From a virus: a DNA stretch of 64,000 nucleotides. The translations under genes were made by a program, and so were the position numbers. Below are positions 2,663-64,000 of the stretch, one piece after another. How positions within the stretch are numbered: position 1 is the stretch's first letter; each line of letters begins with the position of its first letter. The stretch is taken from positions 1-64,000 of the IMG/VR virus record IMGVR_UViG_3300030333_008051. The stretch is one strand, 5' to 3'. The notes under the pieces are model-generated. The model saw only the letters and a program-made list of their open reading frames with translations, did not search any database and was not told where the DNA came from.

Positions 2663-2957
2663 TGCATTTGGTACCAAATTTATACTTGTTAACGATACAC
2701 AGCAAGTGCTGAATGAAAAGATATTTGGCGGTGGACCTTGGTTACACTTAGCTACTGTAGTGCGAGGATTTAAAGAATACATATGCTTTAAACATGTCCC
2801 AACCGATGCAGTTTATATCGAAGAAGTAGATCCTAAAGAACCTACATTGTTTAAAAAAATACAAGATGATCTAGAGTTTAACGATCTAAAAGACTTCTTG
2901 ATGTCTCATGGAGTTTTAAGTATCGGCATCAACAAGGAGTTCAAAGTTGCAAAATAA
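2649..2957 (+). CDS. Hypothetical protein
   Basis: 102-aa ORF with GGAG upstream, overlapping its neighbours in the operon. Confidence 0.7.
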   Translation: MIMADAFGTKFILVNDTQQVLNEKIFGGGPWLHLATVVRGFKEYICFKHVPTDAVYIEEVDPKEPTLFKKIQDDLEFNDLKDFLMSHGVLSIGINKEFKVAK

Positions 2958-3375
2958 AAGAAGCCAATGGAAAAATCAGTTCTTCGAAATAGAGTCAGCT
3001 TCCTCACTGCACAACAAGGTGAGAGAAATATTTATATCTGATAGCTTTTTTAAAAATTTAAAATGCTTTCAAGAAGTTCCTGTTGCAGCCTTGGTAGAAG
3101 GCTATAAGTATAGGAATCATAAAGTTGACTGGTACATAGATGAGCTGGAAACAATTCTAGAAATACACGGAAAACAACATTACGAAATGGCAAACTTTGG
3201 AAACCTTCCATACATGGAAGCTCTAGTTCAGCACAATAATATAAAATATAGAGACAACATGAAAAAGACAGCACTACTTAATGCTGGCTATGAGTACAGA
3301 GAAATAGATTACAAAACAACAAAAAAGCTTAATGCTGAATCAATTAAAGAAATCATATTAAATTCGGAGAGATGA
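2947..3375 (+). CDS. Vsr/DUF559-like endonuclease
   Basis: VDWYIDELETILEIHGKQHY and RDNMKK match the D..ExxGxxHY..RDxxK pattern. TTG start preceded by AAGGAG. Confidence 0.75.
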   Translation: MQNKRSQWKNQFFEIESASSLHNKVREIFISDSFFKNLKCFQEVPVAALVEGYKYRNHKVDWYIDELETILEIHGKQHYEMANFGNLPYMEALVQHNNIKYRDNMKKTALLNAGYEYREIDYKTTKKLNAESIKEIILNSER

Positions 3376-44006: not shown

Positions 44007-44570
44007 TTATGCGTTTTTTAAAGTCGCTATCCAATTCATTATAGGTCCGCAGCCTGGGTGCTCTGGACCCATTGGCCCACAAACTCCAGCAATACTGGTA
44101 GGAAGATTCGTATCTACTTCGCTTACTATTGGTTCGGTAGTTAACCCGTTGCAATACTCTGTACCACGCGAACCAATAAATTCTCCTCTACCAGCGTTTA
44201 GTTGATGCGGTTCCGGACCTTCTGCAAAAACTTGAAAAAGTTTATCTTCAAAAGCATCGGGAGTACTGCCTACTTTCCAGACATCCTCCTCGCTTTTGTA
44301 AACTCTAGAGTCTGCTGGAACACGTATCTCTGTTTCAGTGCCTGGAATTTTCGCCCTTATATAGAAAAGTGGGCGAGTATCACAATCGTCTCCAAATGGT
44401 TTTGCTTCACCTTGACCAAACCCTTTAATCCCATCTATTCCAGTGCACAAGTAAGGTCCAAAACACTTTGTATATGTTTGTTCACTGTAAGTAGACCTTT
44501 TGATTTCGGAATGTGACTGATCAGTTCTTACTGAACTGACTTGGTTGGTTCTAGTTTTTGAAGTAGACAT
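44007..44570 (-). CDS. Hypothetical baseplate-region protein (spike-gene position)
   Basis: Start MSTSK at 44570 overlaps the upstream stop (TAATG); located between the hub-like gene and the wedge genes. Confidence 0.6.
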   Translation of the reverse strand: MSTSKTRTNQVSSVRTDQSHSEIKRSTYSEQTYTKCFGPYLCTGIDGIKGFGQGEAKPFGDDCDTRPLFYIRAKIPGTETEIRVPADSRVYKSEEDVWKVGSTPDAFEDKLFQVFAEGPEPHQLNAGRGEFIGSRGTEYCNGLTTEPIVSEVDTNLPTSIAGVCGPMGPEHPGCGPIMNWIATLKNA

Positions 44571-47500: not shown

Positions 47501-50500
47501 CATTCCAGCAATCAGTGTACCAGTAGCTAATGCTATAGATAATACTGGGTGGTTTGATATCCAACTTGTTAGAGAGTTTGAAATTGGATTGTTTCCTACA
47601 AAACCCTCCCTTGAATATGGATAGAAATCTAAGTCTGCACTTTTATCTTCACCTATCTGCCTAAGTCTGCCATACTCCCATCTTCCAAAATGATGCAATT
47701 CTGGTTGCGTCATCATTGCACCTAAAAGTTGGTGAGTACTGTAGTAAGTTTGATTATCCCAATCTACACTTCTGTCTGTTCCGCCAACACCCTTGATTTT
47801 TTGTGTAAGTTCGGTACCAAATGATTGTACTGTTATCTCAACTAAATCACCATTTTTATTCCATGCAATATCTGTCGCTCTTCCGTTTAGAAGTACACTC
47901 AGCATATTCGGATCATTGCTGTAACCAACCCTAAGTTGAACATTCATACCTGGTCTTAATACAAGAGCTGTAAACGGCTGGTCATTTGCAGCCACTTCGC
48001 TATTATCTGCTCTAGTTGCTATGTTCGGATTATCCTCTGCGATACGCTCAGCTTCTTTTTCATTAAAATAATCAAGATCTACGATTGAGTTTCTTCTAGT
48101 TCCATCGAGCGTTCCATTTACATTTTGCAGAACTATAGTAGCAGTATCTCCAGGATCTTTTCTCGTTGCATAGAAAGTAAATTCTTTTACAGCGTTATAG
48201 CTGTAAAAATCATCCATATTAAGAAATCTTGACTCATGCTCATCTTCTTCTACGAAGAATAGTTTGAAAGTTGGATAAGCCCTTTTCATCGACATCTTGT
48301 TTGAAATAATATCTGAAGAAGAATTTCTTGCTAAATTTTGCAAATTAGCAGGATCGTAAAACTGCTCATATTCAGCAATAGTATTTATTCTACTTTCTGC
48401 TAAGTCTCTACTTATTTTGCTCGCAGTATCTTTGTTTATAACGTTACCAAGATAAGCTTCTCTTGACCCCATCATCGCTTCGAAACCTCTCATCTTTTGA
48501 GCTAGTTCTCCATAAGTGTGCTTGTCGACAGAAGTTTGACTTATGTATTGGGGATTACCATCAGTGCTGCTGATAGGAATAACTGAGGTCTTTGCAGCAA
48601 CTATTTCTTCATCTGTAGCGTAGGTGTTTACATCTTCGTCTGGACGCTCCACAGCTGAAAGAAGTCCAACTTCGGTAGAGTTGTATATTCCCGTATGTCT
48701 TTCATCTGCATTGTCTATTAAAGTTTGTAATGATTCTTGTCTTTTTGACCTGTAAGAGCTTAGTTCGTCTGTTCTGGGAAGTCCGCTAGAGTTAAGTCCA
48801 AATAAAGAACCATGGAAGGGGTTGCCAGTGGGACCGGTATCTACCCATGCAGAAGTATTGTCTGAACCAACAGGCTTTCCGTAAACCCTTGCTGTACCAG
48901 GATTATCGTAAGGGTTACCTTCAGGTCCAGGAGCGGCACCGGGTACTGCCCATTCATAATGAACATCTGCTTTCATCAAGTCAACTTGATCACTACCCTC
49001 TGGGTGAGAAACTATTCTTGAAAGCCTGGGAGTAAGATCTGCTGAAGCAGAATAGACACTAAGTCCTGCATCAGATTTTGGCTCAAGACCATTTTTCTGT
49101 GTACGTTTGTGAAAACGGTATGCAGCTTCAACAGCAATTCTGCTTTGATTATAAACTTCTTCTTCTATTGCCCCTCTTACGCCAAGACCAGCATCTTCAT
49201 AAGCGTTCCACATATAAAAGTCTGGAGTTACAGAATATGCAAAACGACTGTCGTAATACGGATGTTTAGGAAGATCTAGATCTGGATAACATTCTGCACC
49301 AACATATTCATTTACTAATCCTTGTTCGGGCAACTCTGTGTCTGCAAAGCCAATTGCGGCCATCAGTGCAGGACTACCAATTATACGGTCTGCAAATTCA
49401 GTTAAAATTCTTTTTAACTGAGCAAGTTTTTGTCTTTCTTGATCTAGGTTTGTCAAATTGTCAAGACCTGGATCTGGAGACTGATTCATAGTCATTTGCC
49501 AAGCAAACTCTCCCTTTTCGGGAGTGCCTCCCACAACATTGTGCTGCATGAACGCCCAGGGACTTTCTCCGATTATCCCTGGTGTAGTACCTGGAGCTGT
49601 AGGTTCAAATACTCTGCCGCGGGCTTTATCAGTTGCTGTCTTTAATTGCAAGAAGGGGTCAACAGCAACCTGAGTTCCTCCTGCTAAAAGCCCCATATTT
49701 TGACCTCTGCCAAATTGAGTAACTAGTTGTCGACCAACACCTTGCTGAGTATATGCTGCGAGTTGTTGTGCGCTCATCCCTTTAGTTGTACCCGCCATCA
49801 ACATTGATCGTGTTCTTGCTAATGCAGCTGCACCAAGTGCTGCCTCCCCTGCTGGTCCATCAAAAGGTATCGCAGCAGCAGCAGCCGTTCCCGCCCATAG
49901 CAAGCCAACAAGAATCCAACCAGTAGCACCAGCCGTCATTGCTCCTTGCCTAAAAGAGTAAAGCCACCCAGACATGGTAGGTGAGTTCATTAAGTACTCT
50001 GGACTAAAAAACCAATCGTTAAAAATATTGACTTGATCTCGAACACCAAAGTATCGATTACCACCCAAGACTTCATCAACGAAACTATGAGTAAGAGCTT
50101 CAGCTATGGAGGGTACTAGATCCCCTATAACTTCCATCTTTAGTCCCTTGTTGAAAGGTATTACGCTTTGTGCGTAAATCCTACCTAAGCCCTGTACAGC
50201 ATTATCAAATCTTTGCTGAGCTTCTCGAACTTCACTATCTGTGCTGTTGAACATTTCTCCAGTAAAATTGCCTGCAGCAATATCGGTAGGCATGTTTGTG
50301 CCCCAGGCTTCCCAAACATCTGCAAATGGTTCTAGAAAGTTTTGCCTTTCTTCGCTAAGCGTCATCATGGCGTTTCCTTCAATCCATTGCAAATCTTGAT
50401 TTTTAAGTTTTGACTCTATGTTGAAGCCCCAGTTGACTGTTCCGTATATCCCGTCAATATCTGCAGGAGTCAATCCTTCAGTGGCAGCTGCAAGCTCTTC

Positions 50501-53500
50501 ATAGCTGTCATAACCTTCTCCAGTTGCAGCTAGTTCTCTAAAATAATACATCAGCCAACTAATATAGCCCGACCACATGCAACCCTTAGTTGCTTCTTCT
50601 GGTAGATCGTAAAGCTCTTTTGCAATATCTCCATTTTCTAAACCATTCTGGAGTTCACTTTCTGCAAGTATTAATCTTCCGGTTCTCAAAATATTATTAA
50701 GAGTCATCCAGAGTTCTTTTAAAGCACTTACCTGTTCTTCTCCACTACCTTCTTTTGCAGTTACTGAACCAAGATCTGTTTGATGCACATCATAATAGTC
50801 TGTAGAATTGATGACATACTTATCTGTTAAAGTAGCAACGTTGCCAGAAGTTACAGATCTATTATTTTGGTTGTACCATGTCTCAATTTCATCTGCTGTA
50901 GGTATTGCTCCCTCGCTTGGAATTCCTCCAGGAAAGCTGGAAGCATTTTTTTGAAAATATTCAATGTCATTTTGAGTAAGTTCAGGAATCGAAGGCAAAC
51001 CACCGCCAGCACCACCTTCTCTACGATCATGTATTTCTCCAAAAAGAAGACCAAAATCTCCTGATTCTCGCAAAGCATCAGTTACAGAGTTGTTACCAAT
51101 TAGCCACCAGTCGCTAGATCCGGTTCTGTCTTCATTCATCTTAACTGCTTCGTACATACCATAGTCGGTTTGGACGGGAATTGTAGAGCCACCACCTGGT
51201 GACGGTAGATGTAAATTGAATGCCATTCCCGAAGTATCATCTAGAATATAATTTGCTGTTTTCTTTTCGGCTCCAATCTGACTATTTTGGTAAGCAATTT
51301 CTGATGTAGGGGATAGCTCTGTCTGACTTCCTCCAGATCCACTGGATATCTTTCCAGAAGCTTCCATAGCTTCCCAAAAGTAACCGTAACCTTGCTCTGT
51401 TCTGATATATTGAAAGTCTGATTGTTGGGCTCTTCCAGAGCCTGTAACATAATGTTCTATTGGCCATTCTGTAGTTAAAAACTCTTGACGCCTTAGGGCG
51501 TCATGATCCATGATAGTGAGATTTTCTATTTCCTTAATATCGGAAACATTGGCAAAATGTGCTGCTGTTAAATTTTGTTCTGCAAGGTAGTTTGCTATTT
51601 CTTTTGGATCAGAAATAGTTCTAGTCAGTTCTGCCATTAGCAATGAGGCAAGACCATCTTCAGATAGGTCTAACGACCAAATCTTATTCAAAACTCTTGA
51701 TCTTAATTCATCCCTATCGCTTGGCTGTTCTGAAATAACAGTTAGTACTTCTGTATCATAGGGATTAGTTTCTGAAAGTTCCATTACGAAAGAAGACATG
51801 CCAGCAGTACCTTCAACAGTGTTTTGCTGAGTACGATGGATTACTGTTCTTTTCTTTAAGAATTCTTGATCATTGTCCTCTGGTAAAAAGAAATCCGGAT
51901 CTTTGTAGCTGCCTAAAAGTCTTGTTATGAAATGGTCTGTTGCAACACAATGTCCATCTGGAATTGGTCGATAAACTCTGGCATTTTTCTGGAGGTTTGA
52001 TCTCATATACTCAAGCAATGCACCTTCTTCTGATAAGTTGTCATTGTTTTCGCTATCCGCACTGGTAACAAACTCTAATACATAGCTAGGCTCCATTGAA
52101 CCGAGATGCTGATGCGTTGGGAACTCTTGCCCAATTAGAGGTATGCTAGCTACAATATGATTTATTGAACCTACAATATTGCTTACAACTAAATTGTCTG
52201 GGGATTTTATATTCAGTATGCTGCTTCTTGAATCATAGCTTGAATCTGCCCTACCCTCATACATTGCTTGAGTTATCGGCATTGAAAAATCTGGTTGCAT
52301 AGTTGGCCAGAAGTTTGAGTTTTCACTTATAAAAGTGTATGCAACTGTTCTTTTAAGAACGTTGCTTACATCTTGGTTATCCTCATATTCTACCCAGCCT
52401 GCCTGTATGAATGATTCGTATTCTCTTCTAATTTTTTCTTGCTCTTCGGGAGGAATTTCTAAATCTGAGGCCCATCCTTCATCACCTTCGTCAGGAATCG
52501 TACTTGAACCAGTAGAATCCTCATCTATAGGACTTTCTTTATAATCGTTGATCCCAAACCAATCACCATCATTATCTGATGTATTTATACCCTGTAAAAT
52601 GTCTTGGATTTCTATGTCTATTTCCTCAAGAGTTCGAGCATCCCCTGAAGCATCAGAAATTGTTGCTGCTTCACTTCTTGTAGCGGTAAAAGATATTAAT
52701 GGATCTATTTTTGTACCAGCACGGGTTGTTTCACAATGCAGATGGTTGCCGCCAGAATAGCCAGTATTTCCTACATAACCAATCAAATCACCTCTACGTA
52801 CTTGAATAGCATCAGCCATCCCAGTTGCATGATACTGAACTGTACAACCTCGAGTTCCATGAGTCCCGTTGTATGTAGCCAATCGATTGCCATTTACAAC
52901 TTCTTCTACTTTATTTAAATGAGAGTATGTGATTTCCCAAGAAGCTCCTGGTTGAATTTCACCATATTCATCTAGCACAGCTAAACCAGTAACCTCGAGA
53001 GTAAGCTGCAAACCATAGCCGTTACCACGGCCAAAAGGCACTTCAGAAAAATCACTAAATTTTTCACCAGTTGTTGTATTGACCATATAATCAGGCTGTC
53101 TTGCTGACATCCTGTTTGCAGTAGAAGTTTGGCTAACCCACAGAATTCCATCTTCTGCAGCATAGATTGGTGTATTTTTTGGAGCAGCAACATCAATCCC
53201 ATTGTGAGGTCTAGTTTTACCATTATAAGTTCTCATTCCAAAACCGGAATTTATTTCATATCCTGGTATTGGTGCATAAAAGAAATAATCAGTAACTCCT
53301 AAATACTCTCCTTCGAGTTCTGAAGTTGTGGGAAGTCTACCCCAGTCGGCATCTCGTGGGGAAGTGTTGCGTCTAGAGTATTCGCTAAATTCGCTAACGT
53401 AAGTCCAACTACTGTCATGGCCATGTTCCGGCTCATACTCTGAGCCACTACCAGCTTGTCTTGCACCAACTATATCTTCTAGCCCTCGAGACCGAACTCT

Positions 53501-54736
53501 AAGAGCTTCCATGCGTTCTCTTACAGCTTCTTGTTGCTGCTTCTGCATAGCTTGAACAATGTCAAATCTTACATCGAGAGCTGTAAACTCATGCCAATAG
53601 AAAGTTATTTTCTTTGTTTGGGCATAGCATGCATCTGCTATTTGAGCTACTAAAGCTCTTGATGTTGTTGGTCCGTGAAGTGCATCTACTATGAAATGAG
53701 CGCCTGCTCTTGGAGCTATACTTGTTGAAGTTTCACTAACTGGAGCCCCTTGAGTAAAACGATCAATACCGTGCCCTTCCATTTCCGCCTCACTTGGCTC
53801 TGTAGGCGAGGGGTAATAACCTGTGGTGTATCTGGCCCAATCACCTGGATCCATCATATCTGCTATATCTACACCAAAACATTCGTAGAGATTCTTTTGT
53901 TGCAAGTAGTTGCAATACCTTTTGTAAATATTTGAGTACTGAGGCAAGACTGGGGTAGCTTTTCTCATCACCCACGGGTCTCTTGGCAATAAGTCAAAAA
54001 CTTCACCCGCATGAGTAAAAAGCATACTATTTATACTTCTTCCTCCAGTTATATCTTGTGGCTTGCTGTAAGAATCAAAGCTATCAATTGCGCCATAATC
54101 TGTATTGCCAGCATTATCTAAAGGTCCAGAGCCTGGTCGACGTTCGCTATCTCCAAACGAAGTTATAGTAGGTTGTCTTAATAACTCTTTTCCAAAAGTA
54201 TCAATGGTTCGCCTTACATAACTATTCCCATCTGAACTATAAAAGGGAATTGTTTGCCACTCATCTCGATACATCCAGTTTAAAGCATAAGGTTTATAGT
54301 TAAACCACCTGAGATCCAGATCTATCATGAATGTTCCTGGACTACCTTTGAAGTTCTGAACGGTAAGGTTGGTCATTGTAAATGCCATGTTCTGATACAA
54401 AGGCCAATCTGGACATATTGAATCTCTTAAATATCTACTTTCTACATAGCAAAAAGGTGAATGCCTCAGTTGACAAATAAGCCTATGCATATGAAGGAAT
54501 AAATCTGGTGTAAAGACCAGTCTAACCGAGACTTGAACAATGCCGTGCCCACTAGGAACTTTTGTAGAAACTTTGGTACGCAAAGTTTTCCACTGCCACA
54601 TCATATCTTCTTTTCGAACAGATATGTTTGTTGGAGGAATGATAAGATCTATATCGTTGATTTGAAAAATTATTTTCGAAGGATCTTCTTCTGCAGTAAG
54701 CAATCCTTTATCTACAACACCACCTGCGGATCTCAT
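44570..54736 (-). CDS. Giant (3388 aa) tail-tip/baseplate hub protein with M23 metallopeptidase domain
   Basis: M23 motifs HNGID (H511/D515), YSHL, RRGDLIGYVGNTGYSGGNHLH (H665/H667). Hub-like segments VQLRVGYSNDP..L..LLNG and YKGEIMILGNPRIRPWD. Confidence 0.85.
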   Translation of the reverse strand: MRSAGGVVDKGLLTAEEDPSKIIFQINDIDLIIPPTNISVRKEDMMWQWKTLRTKVSTKVPSGHGIVQVSVRLVFTPDLFLHMHRLICQLRHSPFCYVESRYLRDSICPDWPLYQNMAFTMTNLTVQNFKGSPGTFMIDLDLRWFNYKPYALNWMYRDEWQTIPFYSSDGNSYVRRTIDTFGKELLRQPTITSFGDSERRPGSGPLDNAGNTDYGAIDSFDSYSKPQDITGGRSINSMLFTHAGEVFDLLPRDPWVMRKATPVLPQYSNIYKRYCNYLQQKNLYECFGVDIADMMDPGDWARYTTGYYPSPTEPSEAEMEGHGIDRFTQGAPVSETSTSIAPRAGAHFIVDALHGPTTSRALVAQIADACYAQTKKITFYWHEFTALDVRFDIVQAMQKQQQEAVRERMEALRVRSRGLEDIVGARQAGSGSEYEPEHGHDSSWTYVSEFSEYSRRNTSPRDADWGRLPTTSELEGEYLGVTDYFFYAPIPGYEINSGFGMRTYNGKTRPHNGIDVAAPKNTPIYAAEDGILWVSQTSTANRMSARQPDYMVNTTTGEKFSDFSEVPFGRGNGYGLQLTLEVTGLAVLDEYGEIQPGASWEITYSHLNKVEEVVNGNRLATYNGTHGTRGCTVQYHATGMADAIQVRRGDLIGYVGNTGYSGGNHLHCETTRAGTKIDPLISFTATRSEAATISDASGDARTLEEIDIEIQDILQGINTSDNDGDWFGINDYKESPIDEDSTGSSTIPDEGDEGWASDLEIPPEEQEKIRREYESFIQAGWVEYEDNQDVSNVLKRTVAYTFISENSNFWPTMQPDFSMPITQAMYEGRADSSYDSRSSILNIKSPDNLVVSNIVGSINHIVASIPLIGQEFPTHQHLGSMEPSYVLEFVTSADSENNDNLSEEGALLEYMRSNLQKNARVYRPIPDGHCVATDHFITRLLGSYKDPDFFLPEDNDQEFLKKRTVIHRTQQNTVEGTAGMSSFVMELSETNPYDTEVLTVISEQPSDRDELRSRVLNKIWSLDLSEDGLASLLMAELTRTISDPKEIANYLAEQNLTAAHFANVSDIKEIENLTIMDHDALRRQEFLTTEWPIEHYVTGSGRAQQSDFQYIRTEQGYGYFWEAMEASGKISSGSGGSQTELSPTSEIAYQNSQIGAEKKTANYILDDTSGMAFNLHLPSPGGGSTIPVQTDYGMYEAVKMNEDRTGSSDWWLIGNNSVTDALRESGDFGLLFGEIHDRREGGAGGGLPSIPELTQNDIEYFQKNASSFPGGIPSEGAIPTADEIETWYNQNNRSVTSGNVATLTDKYVINSTDYYDVHQTDLGSVTAKEGSGEEQVSALKELWMTLNNILRTGRLILAESELQNGLENGDIAKELYDLPEEATKGCMWSGYISWLMYYFRELAATGEGYDSYEELAAATEGLTPADIDGIYGTVNWGFNIESKLKNQDLQWIEGNAMMTLSEERQNFLEPFADVWEAWGTNMPTDIAAGNFTGEMFNSTDSEVREAQQRFDNAVQGLGRIYAQSVIPFNKGLKMEVIGDLVPSIAEALTHSFVDEVLGGNRYFGVRDQVNIFNDWFFSPEYLMNSPTMSGWLYSFRQGAMTAGATGWILVGLLWAGTAAAAAIPFDGPAGEAALGAAALARTRSMLMAGTTKGMSAQQLAAYTQQGVGRQLVTQFGRGQNMGLLAGGTQVAVDPFLQLKTATDKARGRVFEPTAPGTTPGIIGESPWAFMQHNVVGGTPEKGEFAWQMTMNQSPDPGLDNLTNLDQERQKLAQLKRILTEFADRIIGSPALMAAIGFADTELPEQGLVNEYVGAECYPDLDLPKHPYYDSRFAYSVTPDFYMWNAYEDAGLGVRGAIEEEVYNQSRIAVEAAYRFHKRTQKNGLEPKSDAGLSVYSASADLTPRLSRIVSHPEGSDQVDLMKADVHYEWAVPGAAPGPEGNPYDNPGTARVYGKPVGSDNTSAWVDTGPTGNPFHGSLFGLNSSGLPRTDELSSYRSKRQESLQTLIDNADERHTGIYNSTEVGLLSAVERPDEDVNTYATDEEIVAAKTSVIPISSTDGNPQYISQTSVDKHTYGELAQKMRGFEAMMGSREAYLGNVINKDTASKISRDLAESRINTIAEYEQFYDPANLQNLARNSSSDIISNKMSMKRAYPTFKLFFVEEDEHESRFLNMDDFYSYNAVKEFTFYATRKDPGDTATIVLQNVNGTLDGTRRNSIVDLDYFNEKEAERIAEDNPNIATRADNSEVAANDQPFTALVLRPGMNVQLRVGYSNDPNMLSVLLNGRATDIAWNKNGDLVEITVQSFGTELTQKIKGVGGTDRSVDWDNQTYYSTHQLLGAMMTQPELHHFGRWEYGRLRQIGEDKSADLDFYPYSREGFVGNNPISNSLTSWISNHPVLSIALATGTLIAGMLAVRAGGARLVARGSGGRVAGGGQPLIGPMQATETFPGAMVQTARPTVTYVQQASQRSRVFSWLSYNNPLSPGENIVGYALMTPFRILGSIIKNVRSGGPGWGSAVRSGGPAMRLGTRWGSSIDDLVASADELAEVLKPGFNGTAGRAATAAKQLIDRISGIRGSEAAAAAAARITQAARTAANSTGNARLLARQNIAREVYELQTRAAVQRFAWWPMGAAAQSLKGWAGRSSVAPLAWMVGKATFGNLFIKGPANLVRAAVPLWIAAKGADLLLTNITRWAQDNYINKYRQSVAKVKATLKMTPADDNLFPPNPASYMTLGWYDKKSFWERNVEMPVRAMFDSILNNYVGITYTKMSEWFDAWSDIPDAHILEKRVRPGACRYKLRAQTIWQTFQEMSHRHPGWIYGVRPYGTKFRNTMFFGVPSQRYWARPGDTNFVQRMNKIHRYLNDPGNNYNTLRKQAEELYPRDIIQEWYDTALLAAQALNPTLPSPSAEAYERWEHLAGDTETKAQTMWTDHFQNRMMQEFVTGMENRFVPFRRWHMITSDQDIVQNGIMTSESSVVNAVNVQYIDWNEKDGRPRETSAGVSPIKTQFMKASSQIPDNMLNTAVVNYPNCKGQSMALRYGQSALMYGLREMYKGEIMILGNPRIRPWDVCILMDDYNDMYGPVEVESVVHMFSHETGFLTEIKPNAVVMANEISTWPILEGIKLFAMAVKSVEENGKGADFFGNTDMFFSPEADSRMVDFFMKKYSTRFGQENPLEDFIEVLEDNGLVEDGRDIVRSANSNRLSATYGILSGIFGTAALAAGSGRLLMNVPRLLGAARHPIRNFNLSHYSPLIQSVVAIVAGQAGISGMTQRSGAIGSSAAWLIGMPILFAKCMEEETVNVVPLIKGNRPIVSGLTLKSPAELFNSILGNVTNAAEDTMNGMTRLVDEWQVYKAHSWAAYDKIHGNRSGFVDRYIHHGVTMFDWSKENL

Positions 54737-54739
54737 TGT

Positions 54740-57700
54740 TTATTCTCCCGAAACTCTATCAATATACTGTTTAGTAATAGGTCTTCTTGTATCATTTATT
54801 ATGATACTTCCATTGCTGCCAGTTCTGCTAAGAACACCCATTATATCATACATCGAGTTTCTGTTTACAATTTCGCCTCTCATCATATACGCATTATCTT
54901 TAGAAACTCTAGCTGTACCAATATTTATAGGTCTATTCATCATTTCCGATTCTCTGCCTACTGGCAAACTGTCTGGCGGGATGTGTCTGTCTGTTGCAGT
55001 CCCAGACATTATTGAAGCTTGTACTCTAGCATCGGAAAATTCTCCGGGCTGAATCAATGGTGTTGGAGAATAACCGCTATCACCCAACAATGCACCAAGG
55101 CCCAAACTAGCAGCAGCGCCTAAAGCTAGCGGGCCAACCATTTTTGTTGAACTGAACGCATTACTTGCTTTTTGAATCATTTGGCTACCTTTGTGAAGGT
55201 GGCTACTTAACTTGCTCAAAGAAGTTTGTTCACCTTGCAAGAATGCACCTTGCACTGCTCCAGCTTCATAAACTGCAGAGTTCCATAGTCGTAATTTTTG
55301 CCCCGTATCCATTTGCGCCAAAGAGCTCAATCTTCTTACAGTTTTAGTTCCCTCTATTCCTATGTCTTTTGCAGTAACAGCTGCCGTTCTCATCACGTCA
55401 AACGATCCTTGCAAATCAAGCCTCATTCCACTTAGCGATGCGCCTATCTTTCTTCTAGTGGCTGCATCAGCAATTCCGCTAACATCTACTCCGTGGATTG
55501 TTGTTGCACCTTTTGCCAATTCAGTTCCACCAAAAACATAACTTTTGATAAAAGTCTCTAATGGTTCTGCTTTTTGACCAGCAGAAGAAATAAATGTTTT
55601 TAACGCTTCTTCACCAGCACGAGTTATTTCAATTCCTCTGGGAAGCTTCTTAGCTTTGATACCAACTTCTTCAACTGCTGTTAGCAATGCTAATGCTTGC
55701 TGGTGCATAGCAATCTTTTCGGCACCGGCAGTAGTATTAACTATGCCAATTCGAAGTTGATCCAATGCAACGTCGAATCGACCTACATCTTTTGCAATGC
55801 GTTCTTTGATTGCATCTTCGTATACGAATCTTGCAGCAGAAAGTCCTTCGCCTGTCGAAAGCATTTTTCCTAAATTCTTGATACCTTGCTTTGACTCTTC
55901 TACCATAATTCTGGTTTGAGTTCTGTGAATTAAATCTTGCTCTATTACTTGCTCAGACATTTGGTGGAAAGATTTTCTCATTTTTCTTCCAGGGAACATA
56001 AGCTGATACAAATCACCATCGAAGTCACCAATCATACCCGCAGCCATACTTAAATCTAATCTTCTTGCAGCTCCCAGTTGTCCATAATGAACACCAACCT
56101 CCATAGATGGGAAGAGTAGGCGCCCACCACCTTCTCCAGAAGAATAACTAGTTATATTTTCTGCCATACTTGTGAAGAATCTACTTATGCTTCTTCTGTT
56201 TCCTTTTTGATCTAAGTTTGCAATGTCCGCAAAGCTTGATATTTTTCTTTTAGTATGTTTTTGCAAATCTTCTAAAGCTTGAACACCTTCTGCAGTGCGA
56301 GCAAAAGCTTTAAAAGTCGCATCATCTGAACCGTAACCAACTTCGGCTGCATGCCTGAATATTGCTGCTGGAGCAATATGCCCAGGACCAAGTTGCGGGT
56401 GTCTCATTGCAAGAGCATCTGAGCCTAAGAAACCTGCAGTTCCCCCTTCCATTCCTATAAAGAATCTTCTAAATATTTCTCCAGCATCTTTTGCTGCAGC
56501 AGCTCTTGGGCTTGGAGCATCTGGGGAGATTGCTTGTATAGATGCTTTTTCCCCAGAGATAAATTCATTCATAGCCGAAAGAAAAGTTTCAGTTTCTGCG
56601 AAAGCAGCTCTTCCTTTTACGTGAGAAACAGCGCCCCTGGCTCTTGCCAATTGTTCTGCATTATATTCCCAAGACGCAACAGCTTGACTTCCTATAGTTT
56701 TGTTGACACCAGATCTGTAATCTTGAAGTAAAGCCTTACCTTCTTCGCTTACTTCTACTCCTGACAACATGCCAGTTGTCATTCCTCCCAGAGAAATTGA
56801 TTGACCAACTGCCATAGCAGAACCTCTGAGCTTTCCTCTTAATAAATTCTTAAAACCTGTAGCCCATATTTCGGCCATATCGTTTTTAAAACTACCTACA
56901 GCTTGCTGTGCTTTAGCACCTGCCTCCGCAGACATTGCACCAGTTTGACTGACCAATGCAATGTCATTTGCAAACCTAGTTACCCGCCTAATATATTCTG
57001 CTTCTATTTTTATGTTGCCTTCTCTGCCGGGTATCTCTGTGCCTTTCATTAAATCTATCACGTCTCCGCCAGCAACAAAGAATCCCCCACCGTGCCCAAA
57101 CGCATTTTGCGCTGCTATTCTAGTTGATGATCCGGAAGGGCCAAAATCCAACATGAAACCACCACCACCCTTAAACCTGTCTTGCCTTAAAAAGGCTTTC
57201 ATAGATTCTTCAGTATCGCCATGCTTTATAAATTCGTCATAAGCTACTTTTTCTAGTTTTTCATATCTTGATTGCTCAAGCAACTTGGTGTTTCCAGCTA
57301 TAGAACTAGTCATGCGAGTTAAACCTTCCATGACTTTTAGCTCTCTGTCAGTTCCAGCTTTTCTAGCAATTACACTTGTCATAAAATCTGAGACAGTGTC
57401 GGTTGGAAGACCCATCATGTTTTGGAGTCTGTGTTGTAAGAATTGATAAGTTCTTGGCTCCATGGAAGCCAAGTTTCTTCTATACTCTGCAGATTGAGGC
57501 CCTGGAGTCAGAGTGGTCAAACCCAATGCAAGACCTTGTCTTGATGCTGCCATTATTCGGCTAGCTTGTCCCTTACCGAATTCTCCTTCAAGTATGCCAG
57601 CGAATGCATCTTCACCTTCTTTGCCGAGACCACTCATGCTTTTCCAAGCACCAGCAAATACCATACCTATAAGTTCGTCTGGAATTGCTTTACCAGATTT

Positions 57701-60130
57701 TGCAAGAGCTCTAGCAGTGCCACGAGTTGACTCTTCTATAAAGAGTCTTTGCCTTGTCATAGCATCAGCTTCAAAAAAGTTCGTACTTTTTAGACCTTTT
57801 TCAATATTCAAATTTATTGTATCTCTTAGCTTTCTCGGGTCAGCTCCTGCAATTAAGCTTGCACCCCCTATCATCTGGTTAGCTAAAAATGCTGGTGCTT
57901 TCTTTAACATTGAACCCTCTGTAAGCATCAAATTAGATTGACCGATATTTGCTTGTGCAAGAAGTTGCGTAGCAGAGCGATTGCCTATACGCATATTTCC
58001 AAAACGATTCATAACATTTTCGTTTATTCCTTTCACAGTACCTTTAAAGAGCATTCCAAAAACTTTTGCATGTGGAGACTCGACAGTGTATGAGCCAGAA
58101 AAATGCAATAATTGTTTTCCTGCCGCATCAGTTACTTCTGATAATCCAATATCCAAAGACTTCATTCCTGCCCATCTTTGCACACCTATTTCAGCCATAT
58201 TCTCGCCAAAGCCAAGCAGCCCAACGCCACCTTTCTTTCCACCAAATGCAGCAAAAAATTCATCTACAGAGCCAATTGTCTTACCCTTGTTGATTCCAGT
58301 TAAAATAGTAGTTGATTGACCGCCTCCAATTTGTAACCTCATGCCTCTTTGTCTGCGTTCTACTAACTCATTCAACAATTGAGTAGACATTTTCTTATGT
58401 CCAAAAACAGTTGGATCCACGACAGTCTTTGTGAACTCATTAGCAACTAAGGGTCCAGCTCCTCTTGAGCCCATGTAGGCTTCGCCTTCCCCAAGTCCAA
58501 ATCTGGCCACATCCCCTACGTCAAGAACAACAGCTTTCTGCATACCGCCACTAACAACGCCATCTGCAAATTCCAGATTTTGTCCAAACTGTTGAACAAC
58601 ATTTCCAACGCCAAAAGTTGAGCCAACTGGATTTAGGGGATTGTTTACAAACATACCCTTCCTTCCCAATATTTGTTTTTCACGAGCAACTACTGGCAAA
58701 AGTGTCCTGTCCATTACACCACCTATTGGCCTAACTGCAGATAGAGAGCCACCCTGCCCCAAGCTTAAAGAAAAATATGCACTATCATTTGCAAGAAGAT
58801 TCACCATTGGATCTCCTGAAGCATCAAGGAGACCCTTAGAGCCAGCTGCTAAAGCAGCTCTCATTGTTCTTTGCTCATTCATAGTTAAGTTTTGCGCATT
58901 AGTAAACATTATCTGCGCATTATTTAGTGCTAGATTTGATTGCATATGTGCGCCCATAACGCCACCAACTCTTTCTGCTCTAGACATTTGTGTACTTAAA
59001 TCTGTTAGCGCACTATGGAAGTGTTTCGGCTTTATATTGGCAGCTCCATGTTTTGCTGATAAAGTCTCAAAAGTTCTTAATCCAGCTTCAACAGCATCAA
59101 AGAAAACACCCTTGCTGCCCTTTCTCATCTCTTCTGCTATCATAGCTTGAGTGAGCGGCTTATTTAATCTTATTGTTTTTTCAGCAACACCTGCAGCATC
59201 AGCAAAAATTTGTGGGGTTACGTAGGTGGTCGTTCCTTGACCACCTCTGAAAACTCCAATCTTACCCAACCCTTTAGTTCCTCCCTGGACAGCATCAGCC
59301 ATTTGTAGCGGCACGCTTATAAAGCCAGTACCAGCCAAACCCCTGTTCGCTTGTTGAGCGTTTCTGAAAACTCTAGCATAAATACCCTGTCCCGTAGCTT
59401 CCTGAAGACTGTATAGTCGAATCCTACTATCTGCACCCTCACCTATTGCTGCTCTCAGTCGGTTTAGCCCTGATTTTGTTGCATCATTTAAATCGTTGTA
59501 AGATATGGGGTTGTAGTTCGGACTCAACCCTTTTAAATTTATATTTGGTGGACCCGACAATACGTTTGAGTAAGTATCTAATTGTTGAAAAAGTCTACTT
59601 GCTTGCCTCTTGGTATCATCGCTTCCTGTTTCCAGAATAGTATTCATTATGTTGCTTACAAGTTTTTCTTCTTCTTCAATAGCTCCAGCTATTTCTTTAT
59701 CCATCAATTCAAGCAATTGTTCTTTGACAGTACCTTTCAACGATGCTTCTGTAGCGTCTGAAGAATCTAGCAATTCGAGAGTTGCCCCTATCACTTGCTT
59801 TCTTGTTTCAGCACTTTCTTGAAGCATTCTTCTAATTTCACCACCACTAATTAAACTTTCACGAAGCTGCTCAGCTCTTTTCTGTGTTGCGCGAAGTTGA
59901 GTTTCTTGTAATCTTCTTAAGTTGTTGCCAACCTGTACGTTGGCTCCACGTATTCCAGTATTTAAATTAGACATAGATAGCGACTGGTTAGACATTATGC
60001 GATTAATACCTATACCAGCACCAACAATCATGGGTGCAATTCCTATAGCTTTACCAACCAAAGAAGTTGCTATTCCAGCATCTTTGGTTACCTTATTTTT
60101 TAGATCGTTAGGGTCATCGTAAAAAGGCAT
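54740..60130 (-). CDS. Candidate single-chain two-barrel (virion) DNA-dependent RNA polymerase, 1796 aa
   Basis: Ordered motifs GEGEAY (~548), KVFGMLFKG (K689/K696), FKNLLRGKLRGS (~1093), MRHPQL (R1243), GDFDGD (D1369-D1373; nt 56012-56026). Confidence 0.7.
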   Translation of the reverse strand: MPFYDDPNDLKNKVTKDAGIATSLVGKAIGIAPMIVGAGIGINRIMSNQSLSMSNLNTGIRGANVQVGNNLRRLQETQLRATQKRAEQLRESLISGGEIRRMLQESAETRKQVIGATLELLDSSDATEASLKGTVKEQLLELMDKEIAGAIEEEEKLVSNIMNTILETGSDDTKRQASRLFQQLDTYSNVLSGPPNINLKGLSPNYNPISYNDLNDATKSGLNRLRAAIGEGADSRIRLYSLQEATGQGIYARVFRNAQQANRGLAGTGFISVPLQMADAVQGGTKGLGKIGVFRGGQGTTTYVTPQIFADAAGVAEKTIRLNKPLTQAMIAEEMRKGSKGVFFDAVEAGLRTFETLSAKHGAANIKPKHFHSALTDLSTQMSRAERVGGVMGAHMQSNLALNNAQIMFTNAQNLTMNEQRTMRAALAAGSKGLLDASGDPMVNLLANDSAYFSLSLGQGGSLSAVRPIGGVMDRTLLPVVAREKQILGRKGMFVNNPLNPVGSTFGVGNVVQQFGQNLEFADGVVSGGMQKAVVLDVGDVARFGLGEGEAYMGSRGAGPLVANEFTKTVVDPTVFGHKKMSTQLLNELVERRQRGMRLQIGGGQSTTILTGINKGKTIGSVDEFFAAFGGKKGGVGLLGFGENMAEIGVQRWAGMKSLDIGLSEVTDAAGKQLLHFSGSYTVESPHAKVFGMLFKGTVKGINENVMNRFGNMRIGNRSATQLLAQANIGQSNLMLTEGSMLKKAPAFLANQMIGGASLIAGADPRKLRDTINLNIEKGLKSTNFFEADAMTRQRLFIEESTRGTARALAKSGKAIPDELIGMVFAGAWKSMSGLGKEGEDAFAGILEGEFGKGQASRIMAASRQGLALGLTTLTPGPQSAEYRRNLASMEPRTYQFLQHRLQNMMGLPTDTVSDFMTSVIARKAGTDRELKVMEGLTRMTSSIAGNTKLLEQSRYEKLEKVAYDEFIKHGDTEESMKAFLRQDRFKGGGGFMLDFGPSGSSTRIAAQNAFGHGGGFFVAGGDVIDLMKGTEIPGREGNIKIEAEYIRRVTRFANDIALVSQTGAMSAEAGAKAQQAVGSFKNDMAEIWATGFKNLLRGKLRGSAMAVGQSISLGGMTTGMLSGVEVSEEGKALLQDYRSGVNKTIGSQAVASWEYNAEQLARARGAVSHVKGRAAFAETETFLSAMNEFISGEKASIQAISPDAPSPRAAAAKDAGEIFRRFFIGMEGGTAGFLGSDALAMRHPQLGPGHIAPAAIFRHAAEVGYGSDDATFKAFARTAEGVQALEDLQKHTKRKISSFADIANLDQKGNRRSISRFFTSMAENITSYSSGEGGGRLLFPSMEVGVHYGQLGAARRLDLSMAAGMIGDFDGDLYQLMFPGRKMRKSFHQMSEQVIEQDLIHRTQTRIMVEESKQGIKNLGKMLSTGEGLSAARFVYEDAIKERIAKDVGRFDVALDQLRIGIVNTTAGAEKIAMHQQALALLTAVEEVGIKAKKLPRGIEITRAGEEALKTFISSAGQKAEPLETFIKSYVFGGTELAKGATTIHGVDVSGIADAATRRKIGASLSGMRLDLQGSFDVMRTAAVTAKDIGIEGTKTVRRLSSLAQMDTGQKLRLWNSAVYEAGAVQGAFLQGEQTSLSKLSSHLHKGSQMIQKASNAFSSTKMVGPLALGAAASLGLGALLGDSGYSPTPLIQPGEFSDARVQASIMSGTATDRHIPPDSLPVGRESEMMNRPINIGTARVSKDNAYMMRGEIVNRNSMYDIMGVLSRTGSNGSIIINDTRRPITKQYIDRVSGE

Positions 60131-60131
60131 A

Positions 60132-63100
60132 CTAGTCTCCTCTTAAAACACTAAGTATTCCACTCGTTATCTCTTCATTTCTATCATCATTCATATAAAA
60201 ACTTCCATGACCTCTAGAGTAAAAACTATTATAACTGTGAGCACTTGATTGATTTGGACTTCTTACTTGAAAAGCATTTCTTCCCGCACTGTACAATTGG
60301 CCAGCAACACTGAATGGATCAGGACCTGGAACATCGTGCAAAAATTGTTCTGAGTCTTGCAGATAATTCTTTCTTGCAAGCTGTCTTCTTTGAGAATGCC
60401 AATAGCCATACTCGTGAAGATCTTTTCCAAGAGAATCAATATACCTTAACTCAACATCATCTATGTTAACATCTTCACGCCACCCAATCCAATCTTCACT
60501 TGGCATTGGATTGTTATAGTTATACTCTTGTAAGTTATGGAATTGTCTATTTAAATGCTGTTCTGAAACCGAGGCTATAGAGCCGGTATAAAGTGTTGGA
60601 TCGCCTTGATCTAATCTACTCCAAATCGTTTGGTATAAGTGCGCTTGATCAGAAGGGATCATTTGTAAAATCCGTTCACGCTCACCTTCGGAAGCCATAC
60701 TAAAAGCATCGAAAAACTTTTTCTCTGATTCGGGTAACGTCATATATATAGACATTGCGCTAGATTGAGGATTTACGCCGTATCTAGTTCTATTAGCTCT
60801 TGCCAAATGCATTCTTTTAGCTTTATTATCACCTCTGGCTTGTGCTTGTGTTGCTAACATCATTTGTTTTTGAAATTCTAATTTATCAAAATATTCTTGT
60901 TGCGCATCAGCCTCTACTCTCCAACCGGGTTTACCTTCGTAACCTAAGAAATTTGCAGCACTAGAGAAAGCAGGTCTAAACCAATCTCTTACTGGCTTAT
61001 CCCAGAAGGCAAACTGACTACCATAAAGTCGTTTATATTCATAATCTTCTATAGGGTCTCTATCAGACATGAGCTTCTGTACTGGTCTGAATCCGCCAGG
61101 AATCATATACTCTACAGGTGCAACTGCTTTTCTAACAAACCTTTGAGCTCTTTGTTGAGCGTCCTGGGTGACGTTTGAAATAAAAGGAAGCTCTAATGCA
61201 TTTGGATGAACTCTGTCATAATCTGGAGTCATTCTTTCATTGTAAAGTCTATCTGTTGCATCCATTAAGGCGTTTTCTGATTCAGTAGTTATGCCTTCCA
61301 TTCTTCTTCTGTACATGGTCTGGCGCAATCTTCTGAATTCTTTAGATTGTGCGGCTACATCTGCTAAGATAGCGTACTTATAGATGTCTGGATATTCTTC
61401 CATTGACATCCCTTTCAATACTGGATTTATCGCTTCATAGCCTGCTCCAGGTAAACGTAGGTGGCCGGCTTCTATGTTTCTGTAAGGATCTCCATATTTA
61501 AATCTGTCTGGCAACCAATGAGGCATTCTGTTCGTTAGAGGGTTGTACTCTTCTATTTCAGTACGCTTTCTTGGAAGAAAGCGTCTAACTGCCTCTGTCA
61601 TGAAAAATCCACCACCTAAATTCATATCCCAAAACGCTTCTCCTGGATCAGTAATAGATCCAGCGCTAGCCATAACTGGTCTTTGAGTTCCAAAATTTTC
61701 TAAACCAGTTAGAGATTTCTGGACCATATTCTTTGCCCAACCAGTCAGACCTTCAAGCTCTCTAAATTGATATTGCATTTCTCCAGCTACATAGCCGGCA
61801 CTAAAAGGTGAATACGGAACTCCTGGAGTTCTTCCTCCGAGACCAATCTCTGGACCGTTAACTTCTGGTTTATGCAAAAACTCTATTGTTCCATCAGGTC
61901 CAGGTCGCATATACTCGCTTGTATGCATAAGCTTTGGCGGCTTAACTACCCTACCTATAGTAGCTGCTAATAACCTGCCTACCACTGGAACATCTTCGAA
62001 TGCGGCACCCGTTATAGGGTAGGGTCGACTGTAATAGTTTGACTCTTCTAAATAGTAAGTAAAGTTCTTAAGAAAGAATTTTCTAATAGGAGATATTTCA
62101 TCTTCATTCGGTCCCCATGCTGCTTTTTGTCTGGATCTTGTCATCATGGCGACGTAAGCGTGGGGCCTGTGATACTTGATGTCAGCACCTTCAAAAGGCG
62201 TACCCCCACCTTCCCACCATCTACCTCTTTTTACTTCGACTGATTTTTTACCACTGTAGATAGCAGACAGCTCTGCTGGACCTTCCATGCTGCCAAATAA
62301 TGCTCCAGTAAGCAGCTGGTGCAACCCGAAGGCGCCAGCAAATATAGTACCTACCCTTCCAAGTCTATTTTTAAATCCATGTCTTTGAAAAGCTCCTGTT
62401 TCTCCAAGCAGTGCCTCCCCAGTTAAACTTGCCCCAAATAAAGCATGCGTAAATTTAGCTCTAAAGCCTGAAACGCCTTTAGCTACCCTGTTCGCAAAAG
62501 TAGCTGGTTTTTCAGCATAAGAGCGTCCAATTTCATCTAGTTTTTCTGCTAAGGCTTTGTTTACTATATTGTCGTTTTGCCAACGCTCTCCTTGTTTCTT
62601 GACGGATGCTTCAAAAGCAAAATGCAACTCTCTCAGCATATCGTCTGCGTATGGCATTCCACCTTGTTTAAGAGCCTCATTGTACAAATGGCCATACAAC
62701 CTAGTTCTTTTCATTCTGGTTCTAAGGTCTGCAGGCTCACTAATCCCAAGAGTATCTTTTACAAACCCCCTGTCAAAACGAGGCTTTCCGTCCTTATCAG
62801 TTAGGAAGGTCTTGAGGGGACCTTCATCTTCAACCTTTCCACTAAACATTAAATCGAACAGAACTTCGCCTTGAGTGGTGCTTAAAGATTTTGGCAGCTG
62901 GTTGAATTGAGCGTTTATCATTGATTGCCCAAGACCGATTGATTGCCTTCCTTCTTTTGTCATCCTTCTGAAAACCATACCAGGCAGTCCGCCACGAGTA
63001 ATGAAGTCTGGCATAGTGGCAATACTTAGAGCTACACCTGCAAGGGCACCTGTTTTCCAATCGCTAATTCCTGGAAGCAAACCCTCTAGGGTTTGCCTGT

Positions 63101-64000
63101 AGTAGTTCATTCCAGTTACAGCACCTATACCAGCCATCGCTACGTGGGCTTTTGTGGCAGTTGTGGCTACTCCTGGAATGATCCCTTCATCAAAGCCGGG
63201 CAGAACCATCTGACCAAAAAAAGAAGCAACACCAACGGCAAATGCACTTCTTGGTGAACCAGATTTCTTAACTTTATTAAAAAGGTAGGCTGCTCCAGCT
63301 GATACTCCACCAGCTACAAGCATGTCTCCAGGCAACCCGAAGTTTCTACGAGCCCAGTCTGCTTGCTGAACGCCCATGTACAATGCACCGATTTGTGCCG
63401 CTTTACCTCCATACCTAAAGAACATATCTAGGGGTTTGCCGGATTGCACTTGCATCCGGAAACCCGTTTTATCTGCAAGAGTTTTAGAAAGATTATCTAG
63501 GAATGGTATTTCTTCTATGAGCCTGTTAAATCGCTCCATTCCAAAAGCAGCAGGTACGCCAGCATAAGCGACTGCAAGCCTTTTAGCACTCATCGTGCTA
63601 GTTGCTTCTAATGGGATCGGGGCAAATCCGGCTCTATGTTTAAACTCTCCACCTTGCTTATCAAATACTGCAAAAACTCCATCAGCTTTTGTTCTTGCAG
63701 CAACACCCCACTGTTCAGTCAATCCAAGCGATTGCATTACAGAATAAAAAGCGGTATTGACACTCTTGTGTTTTGACAGTCTTGCTTGTGCTGTTGAGTC
63801 TTTTATTATTTGGGCTTCGTATGGAGCTGTTTCAAAAAGCGCTACCTTGTTGGATAAGGTTTTCCACTCACCACCAGGGGCGGCATCTCCAAGCTTAGGT
63901 TCTACTCTTCTTCCTAGTAGTTTTCCAGTACTCTTGCCAGCTACGTCTTGTTCGTACCTGAGCTCAATGCCCGCTCCATCTAGGCCAACCCCTAGAGATT
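60132..64000 (-). CDS. Tape-measure-like / ejected protein, 5'-truncated by the window (>1280 aa)
   Basis: Frame is open from the window end through 63737. Helical, Gly/Ala-rich with several TM-like segments; motifs VKRGRWWEGGGTPFEG and GDPY..IEAGHLRLPGAGYE; located upstream of the hub gene. Confidence 0.6.
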   Translation of the reverse strand, partial: SLGVGLDGAGIELRYEQDVAGKSTGKLLGRRVEPKLGDAAPGGEWKTLSNKVALFETAPYEAQIIKDSTAQARLSKHKSVNTAFYSVMQSLGLTEQWGVAARTKADGVFAVFDKQGGEFKHRAGFAPIPLEATSTMSAKRLAVAYAGVPAAFGMERFNRLIEEIPFLDNLSKTLADKTGFRMQVQSGKPLDMFFRYGGKAAQIGALYMGVQQADWARRNFGLPGDMLVAGGVSAGAAYLFNKVKKSGSPRSAFAVGVASFFGQMVLPGFDEGIIPGVATTATKAHVAMAGIGAVTGMNYYRQTLEGLLPGISDWKTGALAGVALSIATMPDFITRGGLPGMVFRRMTKEGRQSIGLGQSMINAQFNQLPKSLSTTQGEVLFDLMFSGKVEDEGPLKTFLTDKDGKPRFDRGFVKDTLGISEPADLRTRMKRTRLYGHLYNEALKQGGMPYADDMLRELHFAFEASVKKQGERWQNDNIVNKALAEKLDEIGRSYAEKPATFANRVAKGVSGFRAKFTHALFGASLTGEALLGETGAFQRHGFKNRLGRVGTIFAGAFGLHQLLTGALFGSMEGPAELSAIYSGKKSVEVKRGRWWEGGGTPFEGADIKYHRPHAYVAMMTRSRQKAAWGPNEDEISPIRKFFLKNFTYYLEESNYYSRPYPITGAAFEDVPVVGRLLAATIGRVVKPPKLMHTSEYMRPGPDGTIEFLHKPEVNGPEIGLGGRTPGVPYSPFSAGYVAGEMQYQFRELEGLTGWAKNMVQKSLTGLENFGTQRPVMASAGSITDPGEAFWDMNLGGGFFMTEAVRRFLPRKRTEIEEYNPLTNRMPHWLPDRFKYGDPYRNIEAGHLRLPGAGYEAINPVLKGMSMEEYPDIYKYAILADVAAQSKEFRRLRQTMYRRRMEGITTESENALMDATDRLYNERMTPDYDRVHPNALELPFISNVTQDAQQRAQRFVRKAVAPVEYMIPGGFRPVQKLMSDRDPIEDYEYKRLYGSQFAFWDKPVRDWFRPAFSSAANFLGYEGKPGWRVEADAQQEYFDKLEFQKQMMLATQAQARGDNKAKRMHLARANRTRYGVNPQSSAMSIYMTLPESEKKFFDAFSMASEGERERILQMIPSDQAHLYQTIWSRLDQGDPTLYTGSIASVSEQHLNRQFHNLQEYNYNNPMPSEDWIGWREDVNIDDVELRYIDSLGKDLHEYGYWHSQRRQLARKNYLQDSEQFLHDVPGPDPFSVAGQLYSAGRNAFQVRSPNQSSAHSYNSFYSRGHGSFYMNDDRNEEITSGILSVLRGD

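Follow-up and report, generated by a model that had tools for sequence, protein, structure and literature searches.

The window analysed here comprises positions 1–64,000 of the IMG/VR virus record IMGVR_UViG_3300030333_008051 (full record 107,994 bp, estimated to be 73% complete), and it contains, on the minus strand at positions 54740..60130, an open reading frame (ORF) coding for a protein of 1796 amino acids, designated P0001. Judging from predicted structures, P0001 very probably corresponds to the core of the cellular RNA polymerase (RNAP) in single-chain form, with beta joined to beta-prime, and its setting among the tail genes makes it likely that the protein is carried in the phage particle to start the phage's own transcription. 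Taken as a whole, the best explanation, which we regard as reasonably probable, is that P0001 is a DNA-dependent two-barrel RNAP that would be packaged with the tail proteins, ejected, and used to transcribe the first genes.

The original prediction, made from the letters of the DNA and the list of ORFs, described a Gly/Ala-rich protein with five RNAP-like motifs and a hydrophobic segment at each terminus. The ORF and every quoted motif string were found at the residues given for them: GEGEAY at 547, HAKVFGMLFKGT at 687, GFKNLLRGKLRGS at 1092, MRHPQL at 1242 and MIGDFDGD at 1366, the last supplying D1369, D1371 and D1373. The composition is indeed rich in Gly (11.7%) and Ala (10.7%), and Cys is absent. 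The two hydrophobic strings that had been quoted are at residues 30 and 1666, and hydrophobic segments are present there according to the Kyte-Doolittle scale, at residues 24–42 (60005..60061, minus strand; Gly/Ala-rich, window value 1.82, position kept in the family consensus) and 1664–1682 (55085..55141, minus strand; window value 1.78, family consensus GPxAxG...G). The motifs used for comparison were taken straight from Escherichia coli rpoB and rpoC, and are GDK...NKG (1063–1074) for beta, and NLLGKR (341), NRAPTLH (424) and NADFDGD (458) for beta-prime.

Ten relatives came from a word-indexed search, the most distant with 23% identity by BLASTP and 19% in alignment A1. A family profile covering residues 500–1620 of P0001 was then built from the window and four IMG/VR loci (L001–L004), and at a cut-off of E ≤ 1e-3 its search returned 171 clusters (clustering at 50% identity), 130 of them with E ≤ 1e-30. 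Most family members are 1650–2050 residues long. The phage is uncultured; its DNA turns up repeatedly in metagenomes of marine and seawater origin, across several studies. Conservation was counted per column, among the family representatives covering that column (121–140 for the Asp triad, RxP and the lysine pair). D1369, D1371 and D1373 are each present in 134/134 representatives, and the G1372 column between them contains 98 G and 31 A. The arginine and proline of the RxP motif are conserved in 129/130 (R1243) and 130/130 (P1245), R893 in 124/125, and F691 in 119/121; K689 is found in all 121 sequences, while position 696 is occupied by K in 116 and by R in the other 5, which makes it K/R in 121/121. 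An alignment that takes in 47 full-length relatives, with identities as low as 17%, has G549, K689, G907, R1243, P1245, D1369, D1371, D1373, G1450 and K1494 as invariant residues. The persistence of DFDGD and RxP among homologs had been named as a test that could refute the RNAP assignment; both motifs proved essentially invariant to about 17% identity. Invariance of the Asp triad, RxP and the lysines at an overall identity of about 17–25% points to an active site under selection rather than a scaffold. By this measure, four of the five motifs first pointed out appear to be under strong selection, and GEGEAY only at its glycine (G549 in 100/101). Its proposed equivalence to the E-D of beta is unsupported, E548 being present in only 57/101 representatives.

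The fold was examined with two AlphaFold models, one of residues 500–1620 (model 1; 1121 residues, predicted local distance difference test (pLDDT) 88.7, predicted template modelling score (pTM) 0.88) and one of residues 190–900 (pLDDT 89.9, pTM 0.88). With model 1, the only high-probability rows from Foldseek were RNAP beta-type chains (probability 0.6–0.9); rows for ABC transporters had low probability and were discarded as noise. When the candidates for model 1 were re-examined, 49/50 rows were RNAP beta-prime or Rpb2/beta, with residues ~22–1340 of beta-prime aligning to 447–1115 of the model, and residues ~780–1102 of Rpb2 to 1–384. A designed minimal double-psi barrel aligned over 85/86 residues to model 1 residues 604–881. 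For the model of residues 190–900, all of the 50 matches listed were RNAP beta/Rpb2 chains (best E 7.7e-5). In the models DFDGD sits in a loop that leads into a strand, RxP closes a strand, and the G1099–K1100 motif opens the barrel; a pair of short neighbouring strands bears K689 and K696 in both models. The long helices at residues ~1392–1495, after the catalytic barrel, where a bridge helix and trigger loop would be expected, carry the near-invariant E1443, G1450, E1488, K1492 and K1494. By motif order and model strands, K689/K696 resemble K1065/K1073 of beta, and R1243 resembles R425 of beta-prime. The models thus contain two predicted double-psi beta-barrels, of beta type and then of beta-prime type, and match both large RNAP subunits in the correct order; the lack of such folds had been proposed as grounds for rejecting the assignment.

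These matches also bear on the kind of activity to be expected. P0001 could have a catalytic core of this type and a main activity other than DNA-templated transcription, such as RNA-templated RNA synthesis, priming, or DNA synthesis of the PolD kind. We consider this improbable: each half alone matches subunits of DNA-dependent RNAPs over almost their full length, including the lobe and clamp beyond the barrels, and no PolD chain is among the matches listed. QDE-1 and RDR2 do stand at the top of the whole-model list, probably because they are single chains spanning both halves. The central claim of a hidden, highly diverged single-chain two-barrel RNAP is therefore supported by the conservation together with the model matches, and P0001 is best read, according to the models, as a beta-like half joined to a beta-prime-like half.

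On the DNA, all on the minus strand, the beta-like half (residues ~215–890) corresponds to positions 57461..59488 and consists of a lobe-like N-terminal part and the beta-type double-psi barrel, within which the lysine-pair motif (residues 687–698, 58037..58072) is like GDK...NKG of beta. The beta-prime-like half (residues ~946–1620) corresponds to 55271..57295 and contains clamp-like helices, the catalytic double-psi barrel and then the long helices. Its barrel begins at residues 1092–1104 (56819..56857), where G1099, K1100 and G1103 are like NLLGKR of beta-prime; the RxP motif follows at residues 1242–1247 (56390..56407), at the end of the strand 738–745 of model 1 and like NRAPTLH, and the predicted metal-binding DFDGD at residues 1369–1373 (56012..56026) lies in the loop between helix 863–866 and strand 875–879 of the same model. 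A conserved C-terminal domain (residues ~1685–1796, 54743..55078), recognised in the family consensus by GYSPxPL and an INDTRRPIT-like end, has D1780 and P1784 as near-invariant residues. An insert of about 90 residues between RxP and DFDGD had been claimed, and the distances bear this out: R1243 and D1369 are 126 residues apart, compared with 35 in E. coli beta-prime (an excess of 91). The insertion is helical (residues ~1271–1329, 56144..56320), with its helices at model 1 residues 772–830. In the relatives of 2650–3265 residues (P0072, P0075, P0078, P0087, P0131 and P0135) the profile match splits at profile positions ~770–815, and the extra 850–1400 residues sit between RxP and DFDGD, so the short helical insert of P0001 marks a site of the catalytic barrel that is tolerant of very large insertions.

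At the level of sequence, the protein is not recognised by any of the searches made. P0001 had no match to a Pfam family at E ≤ 1 and none in PHROGs, and neither phmmer of P0001 nor hmmsearch of the family profile gave a match among PDB sequences. The tblastn searches of P0001 and of a 2656-residue relative against 50,697 phage records were also negative, and a Pfam scan of three long relatives found zero domains, including no tape-measure or peptidase domain. No relation emerged when the family profile was aligned by hhalign to gp96 of Thermus phage P23-45 (probability 0.7%) or to the beta-prime and beta of E. coli, although single-sequence templates make these weak tests. Across the 108-kb record there was no match to PF00623 (RNA_pol_Rpb1_2) or PF00562 (RNA_pol_Rpb2_6), both models matching 14/14 in the control genomes; the T7-like model PF00940 had no match either, which is uninformative since the control genomes were equally blank. 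Homology to RNAP consequently rests on the predicted structures.

In BFVD, the Foldseek search with model md12e0049c383 gave a probability of 1.00 for two uncharacterised proteins of the Acinetobacter jumbo phage vB_AbaM_ME3 and also for a "Minor tail protein" of Siphoviridae sp. ctnpt50, with proteins of the Microcystis phages Ma-LMM01 and MaMV-DC ranking lower. Related hidden polymerases may thus exist in cultured phages, as far as these model-based look-alikes indicate. The expectation that automated annotation would miss the gene was correct, since no Pfam or PHROG model sees it and the best look-alike among predicted viral structures carries a tail-protein label. That label, the position in the tail module, and the tape-measure clusters among the ESM Atlas neighbours of P0001 (score 0.85, a lead only) would all suit a tail protein of structural or ejection function, derived from an RNAP but no longer polymerising and keeping the fold as a scaffold, or one with coincidental motifs. 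This is very improbable considering that the Asp triad, the R and P of RxP, and the barrel lysines hold in more than 120 representatives at identities down to ~17–25%, and that an exact DFDGD would arise in P0001 by chance, as calculated from its composition, at ~6e-4. A tape-measure protein is not indicated either, there being no Pfam or PHROG tape-measure match, and residues 190–1620 being predicted to fold as globular RNAP modules rather than a long helical ruler, for which only residues ~60–190 offer a possible helical stretch. The fold, the catalytic-type residues with their conservation, and the synteny described below were established computationally.

The genes surrounding P0001 are found on the same strand in the order terminase, portal and major capsid protein; sheath and tube-like genes; five small genes; an ORF of ~1426 residues; P0001; an ORF of 3388 residues; and gp25-like and gp6-like baseplate genes. 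The sheath and the two baseplate genes agree with the contractile tail that had been proposed. The proposed identity of the flanking genes, a tape measure and a baseplate hub, is not supported by their matches. The upstream partner (60132..64000, minus strand, continuing to 64412 of the genome) has its stop one base from the P0001 start, and the AGAGGAG ribosome-binding site of P0001 falls inside it. It has no Pfam or PHROG match in the 1201-residue part that was scanned, no Cys, and, as in P0001, a Gly/Ala-rich hydrophobic segment near the N-terminus. With Pro at 5.3%, Phe at 5.5% and Tyr at 4.3%, it seems by composition more globular than ruler-like. It is 41% identical over 1271 residues to the gene at the same position in L004, and is thereby better conserved between the phages than the RNAP-like gene (26%). 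The downstream partner (44570..54736, minus strand), which starts 3 bases past the P0001 stop, has a Pfam Peptidase_M23 match (3.4e-12, residues ~642–692), a phrog_20474 match (1.5e-51), strong matches to giant-"endolysin" PHROGs at residues ~2920–3108, and six or seven hydrophobic helices; its counterpart at the same position in L004 is homologous, with 29–32% identity. No shared domains were found by BLASTP among the three giant proteins.

The same arrangement is found in L001, L002 and L004, where sheath, phrog_9206-type genes, phrog_33096, two small genes, a gene of ~1400 residues, the RNAP-like gene and one of ~3000–3300 residues follow each other on one strand, the three giant genes abutting or overlapping. 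L003 also retains the trio, its third gene being ended at 2458 residues by the contig edge, and for this locus the comparison covers the trio only. The trio is thus kept in four loci spanning 26–52% identity. No separate tape-measure family was detected in scans of this DNA, and the trio therefore occupies the tape-measure slot. Next to the terminase, a protein of 1133 residues (L007:6695-10096, minus strand, ~88.7–92.1 kb of the genome) has an SNase domain at residues 841–949.

Outside the window, in the early region at 98,562–101,474 of the genome (L007:16562-19474, plus strand), lies a gene for a 971-residue protein with the blocks WRQP, GDNDGD and QTSVDQQKKD (QxxVDxQKxD). No family match was obtained for this early protein. 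The three blocks are invariant in 9 homologs, including one with 23% identity which is encoded at the left end (1.85–4.7 kb) of a relative whose complete 161-kb sequence has terminal repeats. P23-45 has a non-virion two-barrel RNAP, gp64 (PMC10770324), and in an hhalign comparison with it the alignment takes in each of the three blocks, at 28% identity across 155 columns, the match being weak (E 0.0055, probability 6.7%). The ESM Atlas neighbours of the 971-residue protein (0.96, with 206–210 of 256 features shared) are clusters with PF05183 in 15–70% of their members. PF05183 is the family of QDE-1-type polymerases (RNA-dependent RNA polymerase). From its sequence, it is fairly likely that this protein is a second two-barrel RNAP, similar to gp64 and QDE-1, and it is a candidate for a non-virion polymerase.

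Upstream of this gene, in a stretch of 3.8 kb, there are seven GC-rich hairpins with a T-run and the conserved AATGG behind each of them (94195–97947 of the genome, plus strand; L007:12194-15955). A second set of six (further hairpins L008:5689-11821) has a conserved CTGAC-like loop and a T-run, and then GGAGGT. The stems vary by compensating changes. The exact TTTTTAATGG element was absent from the examined part of the distant relative G002. The hairpins are terminator-like and could be candidate control elements for a phage polymerase.

The presence of a candidate non-virion enzyme in the early region is relevant for the question of packaging. An active two-barrel RNAP encoded by the P0001 gene could instead be made late and remain in the producing cell, working there on late or very late genes, with its place in the operon reflecting timing. 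Such an enzyme would account equally well for the fold and the catalytic residues, and the gp64 of P23-45 offers a precedent. We find it unlikely nonetheless, as a polymerase for late genes must be made earlier than those genes, a non-virion role already has its own candidate, the hydrophobic segments are conserved at both ends, and the gene is locked, abutting or overlapping, between the genes for a membrane-segment protein and an M23 protein in the tape-measure slot of the four loci, at 26–52% identity. Packaging as an RNAP that the virion delivers thus remains the preferred reading; it is the conserved, abutting trio in the tape-measure slot and the terminal hydrophobic segments from which we infer delivery, and RNA synthesis, ejection and early-gene targets are likewise inferences.

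The proposed mechanism is as follows. The enzyme would consist of a beta-like half, with the K689/K696 barrel, fused to a beta-prime-like half with the G1099–K1100 strand, R1243-x-P1245 and a D1369-x-D1371-x-D1373 Mg loop, and this core would be framed by the N-terminal hydrophobic segment and a helical region on one side, and by the C-terminal hydrophobic segment and a tail of ~110 residues on the other. It would be made with the tail proteins as the middle member of the trio, between the membrane-segment protein of ~1400 residues and the M23-peptidase protein of ~3000–3400 residues. The trio would be built into the virion, lying in the tail lumen or else carried as head cargo, and infection would expel it, the peptidase and the membrane segments opening the envelope. 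P0001 could then transcribe the genes that enter first without the host enzyme, and the second, smaller RNAP-like gene is possibly among them.

Several points weigh against this explanation. A sequence-level link to any RNAP is absent from the Pfam, PHROG, PDB (phmmer and hmmsearch) and hhalign results, and Foldseek found nothing in the PDB at E ≤ 1e-3 for the 1121-residue model. The spacing between the two lysines is 7 residues, one shorter than the 8 of E. coli beta, and with E548 variable no equivalent of the beta E-D is identified. The record is only ~73% complete, so other polymerases could sit in the missing part. Finally, a folded enzyme of ~200 kDa would need to unfold or to have an elongated shape in order to pass the tail tube.

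A broader scenario can be suggested tentatively, and we hold it to be clearly less probable than the explanation given for P0001 itself. A widespread lineage of marine contractile-tailed phages may have replaced the tape-measure gene by a three-protein ejection machine, whose middle member, a beta/beta-prime RNAP, would be delivered through the tail and transcribe the first-entering region, with its hairpin, T-run and AATGG elements and its second, gp64/QDE-1-like RNAP gene. With two phage polymerases the host enzyme would be unneeded at the start, and this P23-45-like programme would have evolved separately, from an ancestor of the multisubunit type. If the P0001 enzymes are active and ejected, more phages start infection independently of the host RNAP, the labels "minor tail protein" and "tape measure" on such genes would be wrong, and how an enzyme of this size exits a contractile tail becomes a question; the family would also offer structural and evolutionary studies a compact relative of cellular RNAP in single-chain form.

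To our knowledge, the gp96 of the Thermus siphovirus P23-45 (2024) is the sole tail-associated two-barrel virion RNAP described so far, and the only other known single-chain two-barrel virion RNAPs are those of the crAss-like phages. Both had been cited as precedents for P0001, and both are real (gp96, PMC10770324; crAss-like phi14:2 gp66). In P23-45 an active, DFDGD-bearing virion RNAP is part of the tape-measure protein (Chaban et al. 2024, PMC10770324); tape-measure-fused RNAPs of the gp96 type also occur in P74-26, G20c and TSP4, with structures in PDB 8H2M/8H2N, and gp96 is described as a flat, clamp-less enzyme belonging to the clade of QDE-1 and single-subunit phage enzymes (PMC10770324). 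The similarities to P0001 are that a DFDGD-bearing, otherwise unrecognisable two-barrel RNAP occupies the tape-measure slot of a long-tailed phage, that the module includes hydrophobic membrane segments and a metallopeptidase, and that a second gp64-like RNAP is possibly present in the early region. The two differ in that gp96 is the N-terminus of a single protein of 5002 residues, while P0001 is a separate gene between two giant ones, with the M23 peptidase in the next gene, and in that the tail is contractile rather than of siphovirus type. Moreover, gp96 is not the best structural match, the halves of P0001 being similar to almost the entire length of multisubunit beta and beta-prime. The P0001-family motif strings were absent from the searched supplementary text of PMC10770324, a paper that treats 23 RNAP families.

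The gp66 phages are short-tailed crAss-like phages, in which gp66 travels as head cargo. The gp66 of Cellulophaga phage phi14:2 (PDB 6VR4) is a virion-packaged, single-chain two-barrel RNAP of ~2000 residues (Drobysheva et al., bioRxiv 10.1101/2020.03.07.982082). It has DFDxD at almost the same residue number as P0001 (1361–1365) and is likewise invisible to standard annotation, but unlike it the P0001 gene lies in a contractile tail module; the two share no sequence similarity, and 6VR4 is not among the structural matches listed for the P0001 models. QDE-1 and the plant RDR2 are eukaryotic and mainly RNA-templated, and only the core of P0001 matches them, its lobe and clamp regions being nearer to beta/beta-prime.

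The multisubunit RNAPs (rpoB/rpoC of bacteria, Rpb2/Rpb1 of archaea and eukaryotes, poxvirus Rpo132/Rpo147 and the split subunits of the jumbo phages phiKZ and AR9) share with P0001 the order and fold of the halves, the lysine pair of the first barrel, and the GK strand, RxP and DFDGD of the second, with alignments covering chain residues ~40–1300 of beta and ~22–1340 of beta-prime. P0001 differs from them in being one polypeptide with ~1400 core residues, compared with two subunits and ~2750 residues for beta plus beta-prime; in having no Pfam Rpb1/Rpb2 match, membrane-like termini, and the 91-residue barrel insertion (850–1400 residues in some relatives); and in that alpha, omega and sigma partners are not evident. 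As judged from the models, P0001 has the testable features of the two-barrel RNAP superfamily, and by these tests it is neither a gp96-type fusion nor a member of the gp66 group, nor a Pfam Rpb1/Rpb2 protein. Searches of the published literature turned up no account of an RNAP family encoded by stand-alone genes of the tail module. The P0001 family is a large, unannotated set of probable RNAPs in tail modules, its members with examined context being stand-alone genes of contractile-tailed phages, and in architecture it seems to resemble a fused beta/beta-prime more than the QDE-1-like phage enzymes.

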